DNA from: a virus
Lineage: Duplodnaviria; Caudoviricetes
Direction: 5' to 3' (one strand)
IMG/VR virus record: IMGVR_UViG_3300037400_002732
Span: 64,001 to 128,000 of that record
DNA length: 64,000 nt
A model generated the notes under the pieces. That model was not told the DNA's origin. It was given only the letters and a program-made list of their open reading frames with translations, and made no database searches. Position 1 is the first letter of the stretch. Every line of letters starts with the position of its first letter. This document shows positions 4,482 through 31,631 of the stretch, one piece after another. Both the position numbers and the translations under genes were made by a program.

Positions 4482-5642
4482 TTAGAACGGCAATTCCGTG
4501 TCGTCTTCGTCACCATCCGGAAGCTGGTTAGCAAGTTCAGTCATGCTGGGCTTGGCTGCTGGAGCCGGGCGAGCAGCCGGTCTGGCGGCTGGGGCCGGAG
4601 TAGCGGAAGCGACGAGCATTGCGTCAGAATCTGCTTCAACTTCAGGCTTTGCGGCAGCAACAAGTTCGGCATCAGCGTCAAGGAAATCAGCTGCACCCAT
4701 CTTGTTTGCATGGTTTGCGTAGTTCGGATTCGGAGCCGCAGAGAAGCTGTGATTTACCGGGGTAAATCCACCTTCAGCGACACCGTCAACTGGCTTCGCA
4801 GAAGACGCCTTTTCCATGAATTCGCGCCACTTAGCAGCAGCCTGGTCTTCGTCCGGAATGTCCTTGAGATATTCCTTGAGGTCATGGCAGCGGCTGAGAA
4901 TGTCAAGCATTTCTTCCTTGGTATCGGCAAGCGGCGAGGATTCTGGCAAGTAGTCAGAGCCGTCGTAGGAGGTCATATTCTTGGCAGCGTCCCAAGTCAC
5001 GACCACACCAAAGTCAACGCCCTTGGTCGGAGAATGAGGAATAAACTTGCGCTTTTCCTTCTTAATCTTTGCAAGAGCACCCTTTGCTGGTGCGGCATTC
5101 GCATTGTTGGTTTCAGCGTCAACGCTGTCATCGAACGGTGCGCGGAGCGTACGTTCAACAGCATCGCTATGACGCCAGACGAGAACCTTACCATTATTGG
5201 TCTGCTTGTTATCGTCTTCCTTCACGAGAATGTTGGTGTACCATTCCGGACGAGAACGCATGTCAGACCACACCTTGAGTTCCGGAGAGCCCTTCGGATA
5301 TTTGGTCTTCAAGTCGTTGTAACGATCCCAGATTGCACGGCAAATCGGACAATCTTGGCCCGGAATATTACGGCCACACTTCACTTCCATGTGAACGCCG
5401 TTGATTTTGAGGTGGTGGTACAAAACCTTCACGCTAGGATAGGTCTTGTTCTTTACGCCTTCAATACCTTGCGGTAGTAAACGGACGATAGCACTGTAGC
5501 TGGGATTGCGCTTGCTTACGCTAGGCTTCCAGCGGTTCGGATCAGTGGCACCACTGGTCGAAGTGGCTTCGTCGAGGTTGGACACGGTGTCAATGTCGAG
5601 GTCAATAAAATCGGCATTAGCTTGGGGATTATTAGTAGTCAT
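4482..5642 (-). CDS. gp32: Single-stranded DNA-binding protein (T4 gp32-like)
   Basis: DPNRWKP, AIVRLLP, H...C...CPIC Zn site, NILVKEDD..NNGKV, SYDGS; acidic C-terminus ending DDTELPF. Confidence 0.92.
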   Translation of the reverse strand: MTTNNPQANADFIDLDIDTVSNLDEATSTSGATDPNRWKPSVSKRNPSYSAIVRLLPQGIEGVKNKTYPSVKVLYHHLKINGVHMEVKCGRNIPGQDCPICRAIWDRYNDLKTKYPKGSPELKVWSDMRSRPEWYTNILVKEDDNKQTNNGKVLVWRHSDAVERTLRAPFDDSVDAETNNANAAPAKGALAKIKKEKRKFIPHSPTKGVDFGVVVTWDAAKNMTSYDGSDYLPESSPLADTKEEMLDILSRCHDLKEYLKDIPDEDQAAAKWREFMEKASSAKPVDGVAEGGFTPVNHSFSAAPNPNYANHANKMGAADFLDADAELVAAAKPEVEADSDAMLVASATPAPAARPAARPAPAAKPSMTELANQLPDGDEDDTELPF

Positions 5643-25600: not shown

Positions 25601-26439
25601 ATATAGTCATCATCCGAACGTTCTTTATTCATGGCTTTCGTAGCAGTGTTACCAGACCAGCTTTTGGTCACAATATTGTATAGCTGCTGCGCCATAGCGG
25701 CAGTCCTATCGTTCCAAGCAGCGTCGCGAAATTCACTACCAACAATCTCATTACGCAGTACAGAACATGCAAGCGTCAAGTAAGCAGCATCAGTAACCAT
25801 CTGGTCAGATACATACGAACGAATGTTAGCTACATCGACCATGCTGTTAATAATCTCGATAACCTTGTTCAAACGAGCGGCGACAATTCCGTACAGCTCG
25901 TTCAAATCCGCGTTAGACACCGACTGTTCAGTCACCGGAGTTTGGTACAGCGAAGACGTGCACACTTCAAGCGAACTCATCAGCGCATAGTTGAACGCCT
26001 CGGCAGCTTGACTGCATGCGTTTTTGCGGCGTAATCCAGACTGCTTGCTAGGCTGGGATTCAAAGTTATAATCAACAACGGATTGGAAAGCCTTAATCGC
26101 TACCTTGTCATTGGTAGATTTAGCCATTTTCAACAAGAGCTTAGCCAGCGGAGGAATGACGGTAGCAGCCAAGTAGACATAGCGACGGCGAGCATTATCA
26201 CCCTTTTCATCATCACGATTCGAACCGCGCAAACTAGGATTCCAATTAGCGCGTAAGGCAACTTGATTCAATACAGCTTGGACAGCTGCATTCTTCGCCA
26301 CGTTGGTATATGAATTCTCATACGTCGTGCCGCTTGTTTCACCAAGCACCACATTCAGCACTTCATTCACATCTTGAACGATAAGTTTCTCAATTTCAGC
26401 TGGATTGGCCGCTTCAAGTAATATACGCTGACTGGTCAT
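19684..26439 (-). CDS. Giant 2251 aa Ala-rich helical protein, possible virion-internal/ejection protein
   Basis: Uninterrupted ORF; late motif at 26466; N-terminal MTSQRILLEAA; acidic/Lys-rich disordered tail; no catalytic motif recognised. Confidence 0.8.
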   Translation of the reverse strand: MTSQRILLEAANPAEIEKLIVQDVNEVLNVVLGETSGTTYENSYTNVAKNAAVQAVLNQVALRANWNPSLRGSNRDDEKGDNARRRYVYLAATVIPPLAKLLLKMAKSTNDKVAIKAFQSVVDYNFESQPSKQSGLRRKNACSQAAEAFNYALMSSLEVCTSSLYQTPVTEQSVSNADLNELYGIVAARLNKVIEIINSMVDVANIRSYVSDQMVTDAAYLTLACSVLRNEIVGSEFRDAAWNDRTAAMAQQLYNIVTKSWSGNTATKAMNKERSDDDYILKSENVVTKNMAELGDNTTQFNLVNNKTKFTCQRYYKIFAIDALSRFSYNMKNSRVGHAVYKVMQRILTDSGYKCEPVFDDQSAANLAKSVATWFQEVSANTQTAISLHYDLLSNLADLSDEAAKAAKLGKEELSKWFIEKGLARADNELDYATFVSAVKNIKTKIVFSGDNEIHGGETADGKEIVNAVGLADAVYTFREESPNDRLKGDGSKSDQVTAGKITERCFEFHDGVLKIAYHGDGPLQDYNIDVDSIDLPRIKEIYTNYVSSSLIPAYVSGGTAWIIMCGLKAFSNIRSGASDDALMKSDAMTREMENIHDANIMQDTRMSEEAKRLRTLNRSDNVHKIATNGFLPSEEADNFGYRTALVDKVKNLYDASDPELLNKAVSNIGSICDNFTHAVSHYAKSAEAAGYGTADDIAENVYKVAPSIDTFVLGKHSAVDKMIASYMATLNSDEGSASDSASVILSANALSDLCKACNVVAYTDGLVKAQQATLLDLLRSSVFFMENFYSAENKASDPQTKQSIASAIQTFNDVNNDKHWFSSFDEFHDKVVDLQTSIIGKNGAKALAKARAAEIKSVYVCVISIVSKNSAQWHDQVKNLVDALMKTPRGKRVEQLRNNLYTVVDKCIDEKGVTQDLLDTMTAAISKTMAGDPKQNKKTLRELRINQYAQRVKVFGMLRYVAGYSKKDPLETAEPTEQAFTLKPGGDPMPEISMFSNENMGRTTLHYANGEQDALVHDASATSDLTAGDHALGDILQQAAYYNNAVKAYQDAGESLEGAIELAKEMPNATPIENENATDDEQIRHWYKVFAENPKRDPSQLRLFQRYIATYDAAKEKKAAGAAALAKIGKDYPCYAGLVASIVDGKVSSDEVEHARNVMNAAIKTLRDLKKYKSYDDIDNHEDPEFREFSYTESDASSIAQVVFMLGEYVLTLHTDTQEDLVESLDNVRGILSRYSGNPLSIKIAQIATNVVKGAESEEDLATKLIQLINRIDQSVINRNEEEVGVPYLSNTRALPRPDEEPQMNEDGTVQPSKYGKAIDSFARSQMRQAPSDEDVAMLGFSDSEEAAARTSYTPLIQKEIDQNPQLAQYAYTLGKAFNAFERVLTDERVDRLSERAFNSVRQSLTGKQLYKGRGANDLQRELVSAMIDDERNKDTSYPTLAEVVKAAIGGYAFKTYNQMYSAVIGSKENILDDKKETAIAFDENGNRTTPEKAYKIPLPRIVALALGDGSSTDVPKVESIKDFAHAIRMDLFKKLTGNYGSIDELTGDVNYAKNYKERATKLMDEAMRSLYELCYGFDTPIADIILVTTTFGQKAGRRAVMKDVGRTFGQSEWVFDLKDALNVMPYDITADQMNQIVEAYCADQPLQIDNERVATAVDVLKDVDGIAKSGEIPRSVLDLGSDANSNDVLIALFKKLGSMKTDDVSWADCVDEIADTNQMDESGDMSDLDKIGVVSGEPNAYPQMMSDEAGEIDSEWISGVTRLLGSVPDSLDKDELMDTVNAYCHNDVAQQRIALNPDKLKVINIINSLLRLDTATGIPTGFFGDTSTIRKQRIRNIFENLIAYKTDDRSWSDCASMLYDRELEAIEKGSNRVRMGSMYPSKAAQRRIAHMRNNPYYSIASKDDYLVKMGPLLAKLREAGILLSDGSHAIFKLKYPGLVFDYGTFNYIAKLGFTLQEKYSLGDDTDNAYVDAFLMALMCVATGVRAERYIQMLASVADLVDSGDNTRQKVAEAVKAITQAFAVEDYGEMVKTSLGWLTRVAFNSMCVVAAASDDGAVQGFKNVFNDITNSSARRSFSLEKVNRNPAEDEEETPETIETGDEFGDLIDEEEIPVDNPTVEAEPKVAEKPKVEKTPKVKKHRATKKASKRETTGAPKEYVSDNAVLSTDDHKYRSGRDGTSSFVSISSDDDEDEPNDPNVDQELFGDVNDFDDETIETQMTSPKKPKATRKSNPKPKLNKDEILASDEIEF

Positions 26440-26465
26440 ATCAGTTCCTAAAACATTTCAGACGT

Positions 26466-26502
26466 AGTTTATCATTACTAAATATCGGCAATTTGATAAA
26501 CT
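26466..26502. promoter_or_regulatory. Back-to-back divergent late promoters (TGATAAACT at 26466-26474 minus and 26494-26502 plus)
   Basis: Two exact 9-mer copies pointing at the two flanking divergent genes. Confidence 0.8.
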
Positions 26503-26527
26503 AGGCATAAACACTATTGGATTGATT

Positions 26528-28675
26528 ATGGCCCAGCACAATTTCAGTGAATTATTCGACGAATACCTTGATGACAAGGCATCCGATAAGCTAAGAAACC
26601 GATTGGCATCCGCCCAAGCCGATCTCGCTAAGTCACCAGTCGCCGACGAAATTCAAGCCAGTCTTGACGGCGGAGACATCGACCAAATTAAAGATTTGTT
26701 TACAATGCTAACACGAAGCAGTAAATCGACTGCTCCAGAAATTTGGAATGCACTGAAGCAAGACCGCAAGAACCTACTTGACGCAGCGGCCAACAAAAAA
26801 GTTAAGTCCAGTTCAATCGATTCGGCAATCAAGAAACTTAATCCCAAGCCGCAAAACGATACAGAAGCAAAGAAAGACAAACAGTTTGATGTAAATCTTC
26901 CCAATTTCTCACTAGAAAACGACAACATCTTTGGCGAGATGGGCGACGTATCGCTTGATGATCTGGCCAACGTCACCGACGACACTAAATCCGTTCCAGC
27001 TACAGCGTCAACGCAAGCTCAAGCTCAAGATCAAGCTCAAGCTCAAGCTCAAGATCAAGATCAAGCCCAAGCTCAAGATCAAGCTCAAGCTCAAGATCAA
27101 GATCAAGATCAAGATCAAGCAACAACCGAAGAAAACGACGCTGAAGCGGCGGCAACCGAGTTCGCAAACGAAGAAGAAATTCTGGACAATGATCCATTCC
27201 ATATCACTACAATAGACGATGAGGAAAAATCAGAAGAGGAAGAAAAAACAGTCGATCAAGCGCAAAGTGAGCAAGCACAAAGTGAACAAGCACAAAGTGA
27301 ACAAGCGCAAGGTGATAACAGCACAGCAGCAACAAACTCAGTCGATATTAATCCGGAAGAAGTAGAAGCAGAAGAAGCACGACGTCTGCGTGAAGCAGCA
27401 GAAGCCGCAAGACAGCAACGCGATGCAGAAGCCGCCGCTGCGGCACAACGCCAGCGCGATGCAGAAGCCGCCGCTGCGGCACAACGCCAGCGCGATGCAG
27501 AAGCCGCCGCTGCAGCACAACGCCAGCGCGATGCAGAAGCCGCCGCTGCAGCACAACACCAGCGCGATGCAGAAGCCGCGTCAGCTAGCCAAGAAGGCAA
27601 TGCAGATACTATCGATCTTCCCAATGACAGTGCGGATAATGTAAACTTCCGTGAACAATATTCAGATGTGTATGCCGAAATCGACGAAAAGGCCATTACA
27701 TCAGAACAAGCGGAGGAAGCCAAACGATATGCTGACCAAGTATTCGCTACTCCGGATGTTGAGCCGAGAGCGTATCATGCATTGACTGGAGGCCCCAGTG
27801 CGATTCGCACCAGGTGCATCGCTGGATTGCTGTCTACGGCAAATTCCAGACTAGGTTACAGATCTGACGGCGACCCAAGCACATCAAACCGCATCAACTT
27901 CAATGGCGGTGTCTCGTCCCAGGGTCACGTCGCTCCACACGTTCGCAGATCGTTTGTTATTCCCAATGGATTCGGCATGAAGCGCAATGCGTCCATCTGG
28001 AATACACCGATAATTACAGACTTCGGATTCCCATTCCTCAACTTCAGCTCTGAAGCCTTTCTCAACGTAATCAAGTCGGACGAAGATGATAAGGTTAAAA
28101 ACAGTAATCTGAAAGAAATGTTTAAGAATGCCAGCAAAACCCTCGGTGGTGTATGGAAGGCTATTCACGCAGCACCGCTTGAGTTGATTCGCCAAATCGC
28201 TCATGAGATTGGAACCAAATGTACGCCCAACTATCTCAGAGTTGATGGTAACGACTTGCTGACTGCAGAACCGGGTGAACGAGTAAGCGTCACGCCAATC
28301 AACTACTACAGCGTCAATCCGTCTTACTTGGGTGTCACGATGGTTCCATACGAATTCTTGACTAACTTCTACGATGTAATCGACTACAGCAGCACATCCC
28401 AGAACGTCTATTTGAAGTACTCTGATGGGTTGACTGCAGATGAATTCGCCGAAGAAATCAACGAGAACGATGGCATTCCTCCATTCTACATCCTCGTACC
28501 GAAGAACGCAAAATTTAGCAAGTGCCCCATCAAGTCCGGTAGCTTATTCGGTTCACTCATGAACGTCATCCTCGGTCGTCAGAAGTACATGATGGTCAAG
28601 ACAGTCTTCCAAGGCAAGCGTGGATGTATCGCAATGGACGAGCAAACCGCAGACAAGCTGTATTCCAACCTATAG
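26528..28675 (+). CDS. Late protein with low-complexity repeats; C-terminal domain paralogous to 30105..31631
   Basis: ATG 26528; QAQAQD, QAQSE and QRDAEAAAAAQR repeats; GIPPFYILVPK motif shared with the next late gene. Confidence 0.8.
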   Translation: MAQHNFSELFDEYLDDKASDKLRNRLASAQADLAKSPVADEIQASLDGGDIDQIKDLFTMLTRSSKSTAPEIWNALKQDRKNLLDAAANKKVKSSSIDSAIKKLNPKPQNDTEAKKDKQFDVNLPNFSLENDNIFGEMGDVSLDDLANVTDDTKSVPATASTQAQAQDQAQAQAQDQDQAQAQDQAQAQDQDQDQDQATTEENDAEAAATEFANEEEILDNDPFHITTIDDEEKSEEEEKTVDQAQSEQAQSEQAQSEQAQGDNSTAATNSVDINPEEVEAEEARRLREAAEAARQQRDAEAAAAAQRQRDAEAAAAAQRQRDAEAAAAAQRQRDAEAAAAAQHQRDAEAASASQEGNADTIDLPNDSADNVNFREQYSDVYAEIDEKAITSEQAEEAKRYADQVFATPDVEPRAYHALTGGPSAIRTRCIAGLLSTANSRLGYRSDGDPSTSNRINFNGGVSSQGHVAPHVRRSFVIPNGFGMKRNASIWNTPIITDFGFPFLNFSSEAFLNVIKSDEDDKVKNSNLKEMFKNASKTLGGVWKAIHAAPLELIRQIAHEIGTKCTPNYLRVDGNDLLTAEPGERVSVTPINYYSVNPSYLGVTMVPYEFLTNFYDVIDYSSTSQNVYLKYSDGLTADEFAEEINENDGIPPFYILVPKNAKFSKCPIKSGSLFGSLMNVILGRQKYMMVKTVFQGKRGCIAMDEQTADKLYSNL
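27014..27120 (+). repeat. Hexamer tandem repeat CAAGCT/CAAGAT (QA/QD)
   Basis: About 18 consecutive in-frame hexamers. Confidence 0.9.
27416..27579 (+). repeat. 36 bp tandem repeat x about 4.5 (QRDAEAAAAAQR)
   Basis: Units start at 27416, 27452, 27488, 27524, 27560. Confidence 0.9.
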
Positions 28676-28678
28676 CAT

Positions 28679-28733
28679 TGTTTCATGTGAAACATTTTAT
28701 TGTTTCACGTGAAACATTGTTTCACATGAAACA
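28679..28733. promoter_or_regulatory. parS: Cluster of three parS (ParB/Spo0J-binding) palindromes
   Basis: TGTTTCATGTGAAACA 28679-28694; perfect TGTTTCACGTGAAACA 28701-28716; TGTTTCACATGAAACA 28718-28733; matches the chromosomal parS consensus TGTTNCACGTGAAACA. Confidence 0.85.
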
Positions 28734-28736
28734 TTG

Positions 28737-28764
28737 AAAATCCGTCAAACCATGGCGGATTTTT
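28737..28764. terminator. Bidirectional terminator between the 717 aa gene and tnpB/omegaRNA
   Basis: AAAATCCGTCA-AACCA-TGGCGGATTTTT. Confidence 0.75.
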
Positions 28765-29953
28765 CTTGTATAATTGGTGAACTACTCACAGCGTAAAGGC
28801 TGTGAGCTTCGCGTTTCGTATCGATGTTTCCCGCGCCTTTAACCGCAGTCCCTGCGGCGATTAATCTTTTACCTTCGGTAAGGATGTTGATGGCGGCATT
28901 GACGTCACGGTCATGAGATGTTCCGCACTGCGGACACGTCCACGACCTTACGTTCAAGTCCTTGGCCAACATATTTCTATAACCACATCGATGACAGAGC
29001 TGAGTTGATGGAAACCATCGTCCGACACGGACGATGGTTCGTCCGTACCATTCAGCCTTATACTGTAGTTTGTTCAGAAACATCCTCCAAGCGGCGTCAT
29101 GTTCAGACTTCGCGTGGACACCCTCGGAGACCTCGCGCACGTCGAGATCTTCGACCACCACCGTTTGGTTCTCGCGGAGTAGTCGAGTGGACAGCTTGCC
29201 AAGAAAATCCTTCCTTCGGTTAGCAACTTTTTCATGTTCGCGAGCAATGCGTACGCGCAACTGCTCGCGTCTATTTGAACCTTTCTGCTTTTTGGATAAA
29301 GCTCGCTGAAGGTCAGCGATACGATTTTCCGATTCTTTTTGGAACCGAGGATTCGAGACAGCTTCGCCGTCGCTGGTAACGCAGAATTCTTTAAGCCCTA
29401 AGTCGATTCCTATTTCGAATTCGGATGTCGGCAGTGCCTTCGGCACAGCCTCCTCGACCAAGATCGACGCATAGTAATTTCCAGCACGTGACCGTGACAC
29501 GGTCACGTGCTTGATGTCCCTTACAGACCAGTCGATATCTTCGTAGTTGCGGAAGGAAACTAAGCCTACCTTCGGCAGACGGAGCCTCCGCCCTTCTACA
29601 CGAATGTTGTTTTTCGTACGGTAAGTTGTATATGAATCCTTGTCGTTGTGCTTTGTCTTGAACTGCGGAAATCCGACTCCGTCGGCTTTCCGATCGAAGA
29701 AGTTCTTGAATGCCGTATTCAACGTAAGCACTTCGGCTGTCAAGGCGTTCGAATCGACTTCTTTCAAGAAAGGAAACTCTGTGTAGAAATCCGTCGGCTT
29801 AGACCGGCACTGCATGCCGGTCGCCTCGTATGATTTCTTACGTGCTTCTAACATGCAGTTGTAGACCTTACGGCAGCAGCCGAAAGTCTTGCAGAGCAAG
29901 ACTTCCTGATGCTTGTTAGGATACAGTCTGACGTTGTAGGCACGTTGAAACAT
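28745..29953 (-). CDS. tnpB: RNA-guided endonuclease TnpB
   Basis: N-terminal RAYNVRLYP...FGCCRKVYN; RuvC-I GIDLG, RuvC-II VVEDL, Zn finger CHRC/CPQC, RuvC-III DRDVNAAINI; all three catalytic acidic residues present. Confidence 0.96.
   Translation of the reverse strand: MFQRAYNVRLYPNKHQEVLLCKTFGCCRKVYNCMLEARKKSYEATGMQCRSKPTDFYTEFPFLKEVDSNALTAEVLTLNTAFKNFFDRKADGVGFPQFKTKHNDKDSYTTYRTKNNIRVEGRRLRLPKVGLVSFRNYEDIDWSVRDIKHVTVSRSRAGNYYASILVEEAVPKALPTSEFEIGIDLGLKEFCVTSDGEAVSNPRFQKESENRIADLQRALSKKQKGSNRREQLRVRIAREHEKVANRRKDFLGKLSTRLLRENQTVVVEDLDVREVSEGVHAKSEHDAAWRMFLNKLQYKAEWYGRTIVRVGRWFPSTQLCHRCGYRNMLAKDLNVRSWTCPQCGTSHDRDVNAAINILTEGKRLIAAGTAVKGAGNIDTKREAHSLYAVSSSPIIQEKSAMV
28757..28900 (-). ncRNA. 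Predicted TnpB omegaRNA (right-end scaffold plus guide CAATTATACAAGAAAAATCC at 28776-28757); 5' limit approximate
   Basis: Established architecture: the scaffold overlaps the tnpB 3' end/right end and the guide is the flank after the TCAC cleavage site. Confidence 0.6.
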
Positions 29954-30072
29954 GGTTCAATAGTTCTAATCTTTATTTTTTATATAGTTTATAACTAGTT
30001 AAATTATTTTTGTCACGTTCCGTGCCTATTATCTGCCACCCTTTATGGTGGCAGTTTTCTCAGTGCGTTCTT
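28777..30072 (-). mobile_element. tnpB-only (IS1341-type) IS200/IS605 element, 1296 bp
   Basis: Right end GAAG-CTCACAGC-CTTTAC-GCTGTGAG-TAGT-TCAC ending at 28777; left-end hairpin CTGCCACC-ATAAAG-GGTGGCAG (30033-30054) with AAAA at its foot and TTAT just outside; joining the flanks restores a consensus TGATAAACT promoter; no tnpA present. Confidence 0.85.
29986..30015 (-). promoter_or_regulatory. tnpB promoter: GTGACA-N17-TATAAA overlapping a TTATAAACT late-type motif
   Basis: Minus strand GTGACAaaaataatttaactagtTATAAACT, about 33 nt upstream of the tnpB ATG. Confidence 0.5.
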
Positions 30073-30079
30073 ATAAACT
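30071..30079 (+). promoter_or_regulatory. Late promoter TTATAAACT formed at the IS left junction
   Basis: ATAAACT from phage DNA plus TT from the IS end; 25 bp upstream of ATG 30105. Confidence 0.7.
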
Positions 30080-30104: not shown

Positions 30105-31631
30105 ATGAAGACTAAGGCTATTTTAGAAAGCAACGCTATGCAAGATAACGAGCTTGCCGCGAATGGTGGTGATATTGACAACACTGGTATCCCAAGTGGT
30201 CTTCCTTTGGCTAAAGGCCAGCAAGGTAATGTCAAGTCCGAGCAAAAACTGCTGAATGACGCCTTTGACGAAGGCTACGATGAAGCTATGCTCGACGCTG
30301 ACCTGGCTGCCGAACAGAAAGCAAGCGAAGATCCGTTTGGCCCAGAGACAAAGCATACTATTAAATTCGATGAAGAAGCTGAACGAGACAATGTCGATCT
30401 TCCAGAACAACAAGAAAGCTATATCGACCAACTGGCCAAGTACTACCGAGTAATGGCTCAAGAATTCAAGCTACGTTTTCACGACAAGCCAGAAGACGGC
30501 GAAAAGCTGGCACAGTTCTTAGTCACTAAGATTCTCAGCAAGCCGAACAGCACCAATGCGCAAAAATGGATCGATTACATCAACAACAGGGCGCAGAAAG
30601 GCAAGAGTAAGTCAATAATCCAGATGAAGATTATTCCTACGTTAGCTAAAGCGGCCAACATCGAAGTACCTCGTCAAGTCAACAACGAACAAACTGAATA
30701 TATCGCAAACCGAAATGGAAATTTCGTAGGGTCTATAGTCGTTCCGGAAGGCTTCAACCAGCCGCCAATCGACTTAGGCAATACAGCGATCTCATTCGAA
30801 TTTGGATACCCGGCAATCAACTACAAGAGTAAACTGATCACCGAAATTACTGGGGAAACCGAACAGAATCGTCTCAAGAAGTTGCTAATCGCATTGATCG
30901 AGCAAATCAACGGAACTCCAGCAGCGAAGACATTTTTGACTCGCGGCGTATTTCAATCATGGACTGGAAAGAAAGCTCGTTCAACATTGAATCGAGTGAT
31001 TAAAGAAGCGGCCCATGCAATGGGTGTTCCAATGATTCGTCGTCCATTAAAAGTTACCGCGCAAGCATTAGTCGGCGACTCAGAGGCTGAAGACATTTCA
31101 TGCATCCCTATCAATCAGACTGCCAACAAGAAGGCGATCGTACGCGAGTCAATAGACGCAAACGATACGAACGCATTATATGAGGGCCCTATCAACTTTA
31201 TCAAGAATCGCTTTAAAGCTGACTCGACTTCCGCACAGATGTTCGGTCAACCAGTAACATTGAACCGCAATTACTTGTGCCAATTCTATACCGTCTTGGC
31301 ACCAAGTGGTACAGCCGGTCTGACTAAGTACGCAAGGTTCATGGATCAAGACGATTACGACAATATAGTCAGTAAGCTTGGCGAGAAAACAATGCAAGAA
31401 ATCAAGGACGCCAACAGCAATGTGAACGACCGTTTGTTCATTGATTATCTCAACAAGACTAGCGGGGTTCCGCCATTCTATATCCTTATTCCTCGTAAGA
31501 ACGAACGCATCCGCGTATGCGACGAGAATATGGTAAACGGCAATGTCTGCGTCAAGTCAATCGACAGCAAAAACAAGGAAGCATACTTCTTCCCTCAAGA
31601 AAATGTTAAATCCGTATTCGAAGCTGGGTAA
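30105..31631 (+). CDS. Late protein (508 aa), paralog of the 26528..28675 C-terminal domain
   Basis: N-terminal MKTKAILES; IVVPEGF, FEFGYPAINY and GVPPFYILIPR match segments in the upstream gene. Confidence 0.8.
   Translation: MKTKAILESNAMQDNELAANGGDIDNTGIPSGLPLAKGQQGNVKSEQKLLNDAFDEGYDEAMLDADLAAEQKASEDPFGPETKHTIKFDEEAERDNVDLPEQQESYIDQLAKYYRVMAQEFKLRFHDKPEDGEKLAQFLVTKILSKPNSTNAQKWIDYINNRAQKGKSKSIIQMKIIPTLAKAANIEVPRQVNNEQTEYIANRNGNFVGSIVVPEGFNQPPIDLGNTAISFEFGYPAINYKSKLITEITGETEQNRLKKLLIALIEQINGTPAAKTFLTRGVFQSWTGKKARSTLNRVIKEAAHAMGVPMIRRPLKVTAQALVGDSEAEDISCIPINQTANKKAIVRESIDANDTNALYEGPINFIKNRFKADSTSAQMFGQPVTLNRNYLCQFYTVLAPSGTAGLTKYARFMDQDDYDNIVSKLGEKTMQEIKDANSNVNDRLFIDYLNKTSGVPPFYILIPRKNERIRVCDENMVNGNVCVKSIDSKNKEAYFFPQENVKSVFEAG

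Follow-up and report, generated by a model that had tools for sequence, protein, structure and literature searches.

Chromosomal-type parS sites at a conserved locus of T4-like rumen phages with no detectable ParB: predicted loading sites for host ParB

A T4-like phage was found to carry three 16-bp palindromes that match the bacterial chromosomal parS consensus, one perfectly and two with a single mismatch, within positions 28679-28733 of the window (the whole 64,000-nt stretch of DNA analysed here, which belongs to a phage record of 174,807 bp with a CheckV completeness of 46%). We propose, with moderate confidence, that this array is a cis-acting site that loads host ParB onto phage DNA and that the phage keeps its sites for that purpose. 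Since parS occupies a fixed spot in phages that encode no ParB, borrowing of the host protein is the most likely explanation. We infer host ParB binding, and everything downstream of it (positioning, segregation or titration), from comparative sequence evidence.

Results

The parS array and its genomic setting

The earlier note had described three palindromes of the chromosomal parS type that begin 3 bp past a stop codon and end just before its terminator in a T4-like phage. All of these elements were re-found, and the features are as follows (window coordinates):

26522-28675, + strand: 717-aa phage gene; C-terminal ~350 aa conserved, N-terminal half low-complexity
28679-28694, unstranded: parS-1, TGTTTCATGTGAAACA, one mismatch (C8T)
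28701-28716, unstranded: parS-2, TGTTTCACGTGAAACA, perfect match to the consensus
28718-28733, unstranded: parS-3, TGTTTCACATGAAACA, one mismatch (G9A), reverse complement of parS-1
28736-28769, + strand: intrinsic terminator of the 717-aa gene, AAAATCCGTC...GGCGGATTTTT, from RNA folding

All three sites are identical to the consensus TGTTNCACGTGAAACA or at most one base off it, and the mismatches of parS-1 and parS-3 are both transitions in the central CG. TGTTNCACGTGAAACA is reportedly the B. subtilis Spo0J/parS consensus, said to have been described by Lin and Grossman in 1998 and Livny et al. in 2007 and to be widely conserved across bacteria. With up to two mismatches allowed, the three sites were the sole matches in the window, against 0.11 expected from shuffles, and three matches were reached in 1 of 100 shuffles. 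The same scan of the full 174,807-bp record, which the earlier note had proposed as a check, revealed no parS outside the array. parS-1 begins 3 nt past the TAG stop (28673-28675) of the 717-aa open reading frame, and the terminator, a 12-bp stem (28736-28764) followed by a T run, lies directly 3′ of the array. The T4-like label is borne out by the gp20 portal, gp23, gp32, UvsX, a gp46-like protein, RNase H, a DnaB-like helicase and a baseplate wedge protein. The UvsX protein is only ~30% identical to those of cultured cyanomyophages, and megablast and tblastn searches against isolated phages returned no close relative of the parS locus.

The 717-aa protein belongs to a family with about 70 representative members, and every member whose context was fetched lies on a phage contig. 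Its N-terminal half is variable and contains QD repeats. Searches of the protein against Pfam and PHROG gave no match, and an Atlas feature search came back blank. We modelled residues 360-717 with AF2 at a pLDDT of 86.6; Foldseek comparison of this C-terminal model with PDB and BFVD returned nothing at E <= 0.001, and in a VIA-wide comparison the best hit (Z 5.9) was a 60-residue helical piece. A hidden ParB-like binder is thus unsupported, because a confident model with no significant fold match is not recognisably ParB-like. It is conceivable that the protein may bind DNA despite the lack of a match to the predicted fold. A promoter-like motif, GATAAACT, lies upstream of the gene. Two divergent copies of this motif are present at 26439-26522 of the window, one directed to a 2251-aa gene on the − strand and the other to the 717-aa gene on the + strand.

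Two further features follow the terminator:

28777-30072, − strand: IS605-family tnpB element, 1296 bp; Pfam OrfB_IS605, Cas12f1-like_TNB and HTH
30073-30079, + strand: ATAAACT promoter-like core, serving the next gene (30105-31631)

The tnpB open reading frame (402 aa) is convergent to the 717-aa gene and overruns the IS end by about 10 codons into the flanking DNA. DNA homology to other IS copies stops at window position 28777. The closest relative of the locus, L193 from another sample (neighbour protein 97% identical over the C-terminal 330 residues), has an empty site, in which the terminator is followed by TTGATAAACTGCACACAAATCACG and the window's two IS flanks are joined. The empty site therefore delimits the IS to 28777-30072, just 5′ of the ATAAACT core, with parS outside it. 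We rejected the idea that parS forms part of the IS, as its right end or an omega-RNA flank, because the homology stops at 28777 and IS-free relatives keep parS. Hence the claim that the array belongs to the phage itself and not to the IS holds, backed by both the homology ends and the L193 empty site.

The ATAAACT core is found at most 90 nt upstream of 40 of the 136 open reading frames in the record, and so behaves like the late-type promoter core of this phage; in IS-free relatives it lies ~30-70 nt behind parS. As a separate observation, tnpB IS605 elements of the same family have inserted independently beside this intergenic region in at least four lineages (window 28777-30072; L196 ~4800-4836; L223/L224 just after 3544; L231 at 3550), each time just 5′ of the ATAAACT core. 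In L231 the stop codon is supplied by the IS, and in L196 the terminator is absent.

Conservation at the orthologous locus

Syntenic contigs from rumen-type metagenomes were reached through homologues of the 717-aa protein. In 15 of the 17 tree rows of the clade, and additionally in L233, parS stands 3-6 nt past the stop codon of the orthologue, so that the conservation at the orthologous locus, which the earlier note wished to see examined, extends across divergent relatives. parS is missing from the remaining two rows, L226 and L231; in the latter, the IS has landed on the stop codon. Most loci have a single site; L194, L216 and L225 have two, the window three and L193 about four. The L193 array consists of a C8T site, a perfect site, a decayed half-site and a TGTTCCACGTGAAACA site, and the presence of a near-identical array in this independent assembly makes an assembly artefact or chimera unlikely. 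A range of one to about four copies, together with decayed half-sites, is as expected where site dosage matters.

parS-2 corresponds to the orthologous single site in L009, L015/G001, L195, L196, L218-220 and L223. The C8T variant of parS-1 recurs in L193, in L216, in a second clade described below (G051 and G054) and in a parB-proximal cluster of a rumen Fibrobacter metagenome-assembled genome (MAG). Within ±2.5 kb in 68 metagenome loci, no further parS-like site was detected. The 348-kb, 91%-complete relative G001 carries exactly one parS. Sister clades (23-52% identical) have the terminator or the next gene at the parS position and no parS; the site is thus dispensable, since this phage family includes close clades that lack it.

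The 16-mer sequence is kept while the neighbouring protein is only 55-60% identical, and at least four unrelated terminator hairpin sequences stand behind parS across the clade, their structure being kept and their sequence not. Sites of relatives are either perfect or changed only at positions 1, 5, 8/9, 12 or 16. The few variants of the 16-mer each alter one half of the palindrome with no compensating change in the other: T5C, which falls on the N of the consensus, C8T or G9A, A16C and T1C. Such asymmetric variation around a kept sequence argues for a DNA site read by a protein and not for an RNA stem.

A second parS locus and the position of parS relative to GC skew

We used the portal protein to gather 18 large related IMG/VR records. 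A distant clade with a portal 59-60% identical (G050-G055; 280-420 kb, including two complete genomes, 419 and 422 kb long, that have terminal repeats) carries one or two parS at a single locus in six of six records. Here the sites lie 2-3 nt past the stop codon of a NUDIX gene downstream of gp23 and just before a terminator, between convergent genes (for example L354:1462-1516, which is G054:201447-201501). No homologue of the 717-aa protein was detectable in G054, and no homologue of the NUDIX protein in this phage or G001. Among the intermediate clades parS was present in 0 of 12 records, which include genomes 91% and 93% complete. Because the two loci are non-orthologous and belong to clades separated by parS-free ones, the distribution is most simply explained by parS having been gained twice independently, and it can evidently be lost as well.

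Distances of 2.5-7 kb separate parS from the global cumulative GC-skew minimum in the records of the two clades that were profiled (G054, G001 and the present one). The sole parS of G001 is at 83.75 kb and the minimum at 88 kb (4.2 kb apart), and the parS pair of G054 is at 201.45 kb, 2.5 kb from the minimum at 204.0 kb, in a skew curve with a clean V shape. In the present record the array (92.7 kb) marks the left edge of a flat skew trough (93-103 kb). Tested against an intergenic-gap null, this proximity gave p ~0.03 each for G001 and G054. The skew minimum falls among replication and recombination genes, at the main switch in gene orientation. If the phage genome were organised like a bacterial chromosome, parS would thus lie where an origin would be expected; as the minimum is also a transcription strand switch, 'origin-proximal' stays an analogy.

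We also asked how widely the perfect 16-mer occurs. It is present in at least 119 IMG/VR contigs (L074-L192), and a ParB-like open reading frame was seen with an ad hoc HMM at 2 of these 119 loci among the matches listed. Arrays of four to five perfect sites occur in L094, L133 and L079/L093. In a separate, unrelated 28.8-kb viral contig (L004:1690-1760, IMGVR_UViG_3300028591_002583), two perfect parS and a half-site are packed into 70 bp in a region of small genes. Among five long, unrelated parS genomes (G035-G039), four have parS 0.03-1.3 kb from an extremum of the detrended skew, one at the minimum and three at the maximum, and the fifth does not fit; ParB_N was not found in G035 or G039. 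This exploratory sample of five genomes suggests a general placement of parS at major strand switches.

Searches for ParB, ParA and a host

No parA or parB had been recognised in the window, and our searches extend that observation. A search for ParB_N (PF02195) gave no match in any of 21 records, namely this 175-kb record, G001, G002 and the 18 portal-collected records, a set in which G001 is 91% complete and both G053 and G054 are complete genomes; the same search was positive in 10-11 of 14 control genomes. For ParA (PF13614, PF01656), nothing above the cut-off was detected in the four records searched (the present record, G000, and G001, G053 and G054). By these searches the phages thus have no self-contained ParABS cassette. 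A weak CbiA match in G053 and G054 was discarded as a ParA candidate, being the DnaB helicase. We likewise set aside a ParB_N match on contig C62 of the MAG G003, which lies in a stretch nearly devoid of phage similarity besides one shared ~400-aa gene.

Copies of tnpB 85% identical to that in the window occur in 'Fibrobacter' and 'Prevotella' rumen MAGs, on contigs of related phages that were mis-binned there. The phage contigs are C61, C105, C23 and C123 in G003 (Fibrobacter sp. ruminal_MAG_346) and C66 (148 kb) and C53 in G004 (Prevotella sp. ruminal_MAG_415). C105 is ~95% identical to G001 at the protein level, and the orthologous parS locus is present on C61 and C66. Given this mis-binning, the perfect parS and tnpB matches in those 'bacterial' genomes are phage DNA, and a host call from the tnpB homologues was rejected, as these copies indicate no host. 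The next-best tnpB homologues are ~45% identical and come from Clostridiales.

On their bacterial contigs both MAGs have a ParB gene together with parS sites of this consensus; their link to the phage consists only of the mis-binned contigs. In the Fibrobacter MAG four sites lie at most 7 kb from parB, including phage-like TGTTCC, C8T and terminal-base variants. Shine-Dalgarno use is 57-60% in the phage, 54% in the Fibrobacter contigs and 24% in the Prevotella contigs, whereas tetranucleotide usage places the phage slightly nearer Prevotella, opposite to the Shine-Dalgarno trend. Short DNA matches in Fibrobacter genomes were dismissed as CRISPR spacers, being low-complexity coding repeats. CAGG/CCTG occurs at 0.15 of its composition-expected frequency in G000 and G001 and at ~1.0 in the contigs of both MAGs, a depletion that fits restriction-site avoidance.

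Discussion

How the sites may be used

If the array acts as we propose, the 16-mers would be bound by dimers of host ParB, which would then form closed, CTP-dependent clamps and spread across several kilobases around the array. Through this complex the phage chromosome, 350-420 kb long, could be linked to host ParA and/or the SMC condensin, and the phage genome might then be positioned, organised or passed to daughter cells like a small chromosome. Such a coupling would be of greatest use in a dormant host or a carrier state, when lysis is delayed. The classical picture of T4-type phages is a strictly lytic one, and for this reason a benefit from segregation is not obvious.

The sites could instead work in trans as a ParB sink, in which the hundreds of high-affinity parS on multiplying genomes strip ParB from the host origin and the phage itself is not segregated. 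This explanation, which we consider unlikely, draws on the same evidence for genuine ParB targets as our proposal, and the two to four copies of some lineages would raise the titration power. The supposed pay-off is a disruption of host chromosome segregation, SMC loading or division, but a late block of segregation would be of little gain to a lytic phage. Moreover, most relatives have a single site, and a sink could sit anywhere, so that the consistent placement at the skew minimum and strand switch in two independent clades would be unneeded.

The chance that the 16-mers serve a different reader appears smaller still. That reader could be a phage protein (such as the 717-aa protein) or a host regulator, or the sites could form a 3′-UTR RNA hairpin with a role in stability, processing or termination. 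Because parS invariably falls in the transcribed 3′ UTR of a gene, between stop codon and terminator in both clades, an RNA-level role is formally possible. parS-1 and parS-2 can pair as a 16-bp RNA stem (RNA fold, z = -8.3), and L194 shows no separate terminator. However, the universal parS consensus recurs exactly at two non-orthologous loci beside unrelated genes, and it behaves in the opposite way to the terminators, which change sequence and keep structure, while parS varies without compensation. The neighbouring protein differs by clade (the 717-aa protein versus NUDIX) and has no detectable DNA-binding fold. When the parS/terminator region was compared with Rfam, no family scored above threshold, the only resemblances being sub-threshold hairpin-plus-terminator look-alikes.

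It is very improbable that the array is a functionless passenger, be it a scrap of host-origin DNA or a chance palindrome, perhaps IS-linked: the lack of parS in sister clades and the repeated landing of one-family IS elements beside it would agree with this, but parS lies outside the IS, is present in IS-free relatives, has been kept across deep divergence while its flanks turn over, recurs at a second, non-orthologous locus in another clade, and would be expected by chance at only ~7e-4 perfect sites in 348 kb. Taken together, loading of host ParB is the most economical explanation, with ParB titration as the main rival, an RNA or other factor less likely, and a neutral relic unlikely.

We advance, tentatively and as a rather less probable generalisation, that host-type parS at a strand switch or GC-skew extremum may be a recurrent convergent feature of ParB-less phages, gained at least twice here. 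Jumbo phages are abundant in gut and rumen, but their hosts there have not been brought into culture. For the phages studied here, a host-type centromere that was gained independently in two clades, is kept in the absence of any phage ParB and lies where an origin would be expected suggests that the genomes are handled by the host chromosome-segregation machinery during infection. If host ParB is indeed loaded, virulent phage chromosomes would be clients of the host ParB-ParA-SMC system in non-sporulating hosts, which would point to an unrecognised episomal or carrier phase, or to condensin-dependent genome organisation, in jumbo-phage infection. Genome positioning, condensin loading and inheritance in slowly growing hosts are candidate purposes. 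parS would then be a simple sequence marker of such behaviour in metagenomes, and orphan parS offers a concrete handle on many uncultured phages.

Comparison with known systems

The arrays resemble chromosomal ParABS systems in their identical 16-bp consensus, in the same tolerated variant positions and in their arrangement as small clusters that adjoin the cumulative GC-skew minimum, where bacterial oriC lies. They differ in that the replicon is a virus that encodes neither ParA nor ParB (by searches of 21 records for ParB and four for ParA).

The prophage-plasmids P1, P7 and N15 and the parABS systems of mycobacteriophages have their own ParA and ParB and their own, non-chromosomal parS. Like them, the present phages would carry a phage-borne partition centromere, here a predicted one; unlike them, they show ParB_N in 0 of 21 and ParA in 0 of 4 records. 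In KorB-OB and other ParB-family plasmid silencing sites the clamp is encoded by the element and the sites lie at promoters. The likeness would consist in palindromic loading sites for a CTP-dependent ParB-family clamp, a function predicted here, whereas the phage sites lie behind stop codons and have the chromosomal consensus.

Our literature search found no paper joining parS, ParB and jumbo phage, and a 2026 large-scale jumbo-phage survey mentions neither ParB, parS nor partition, which is consistent with the statement of the earlier note that no equivalent had been described in T4-like phages.

The closest precedent is Bacillus phage phi29. According to a passage in PMC2731898, which cites Meijer et al. 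2005, the phi29 genome contains five parS sites for the host protein Spo0J, and this protein takes part in its segregation into the prespore. To judge from this passage, phi29 and Nf share with our phages the essential situation, a lytic-classed phage without a ParB of its own that carries host chromosomal parS (PMC2731898). The phage studied here is likewise a ParB-less, lytic-type phage with host-consensus parS, and the principle of host-ParB use is thus already known from the phi29 precedent. phi29 differs in being a 19-kb protein-primed podovirus with five dispersed sites, Spo0A operators and spore entrapment as the pay-off. The rumen phages are 350-420-kb T4-like myoviruses with a single locus of one to four sites at the GC-skew minimum, and their host is possibly non-sporulating. 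The Spo0A box TGTCGAA occurs in this record at 0 intergenic positions against 3 expected, all copies being in coding sequence; since the excess is wholly coding, it reflects codon usage and provides no phi29-like Spo0A signature. If our proposal is correct, the spore-entrapment trick of phi29 would extend to a very different virus, probably with a different purpose. What is new relative to phi29 is the occurrence of such sites in T4-like jumbo phages, at a conserved single locus with lineage-specific amplification, at non-orthologous loci in two clades and at the skew minimum.
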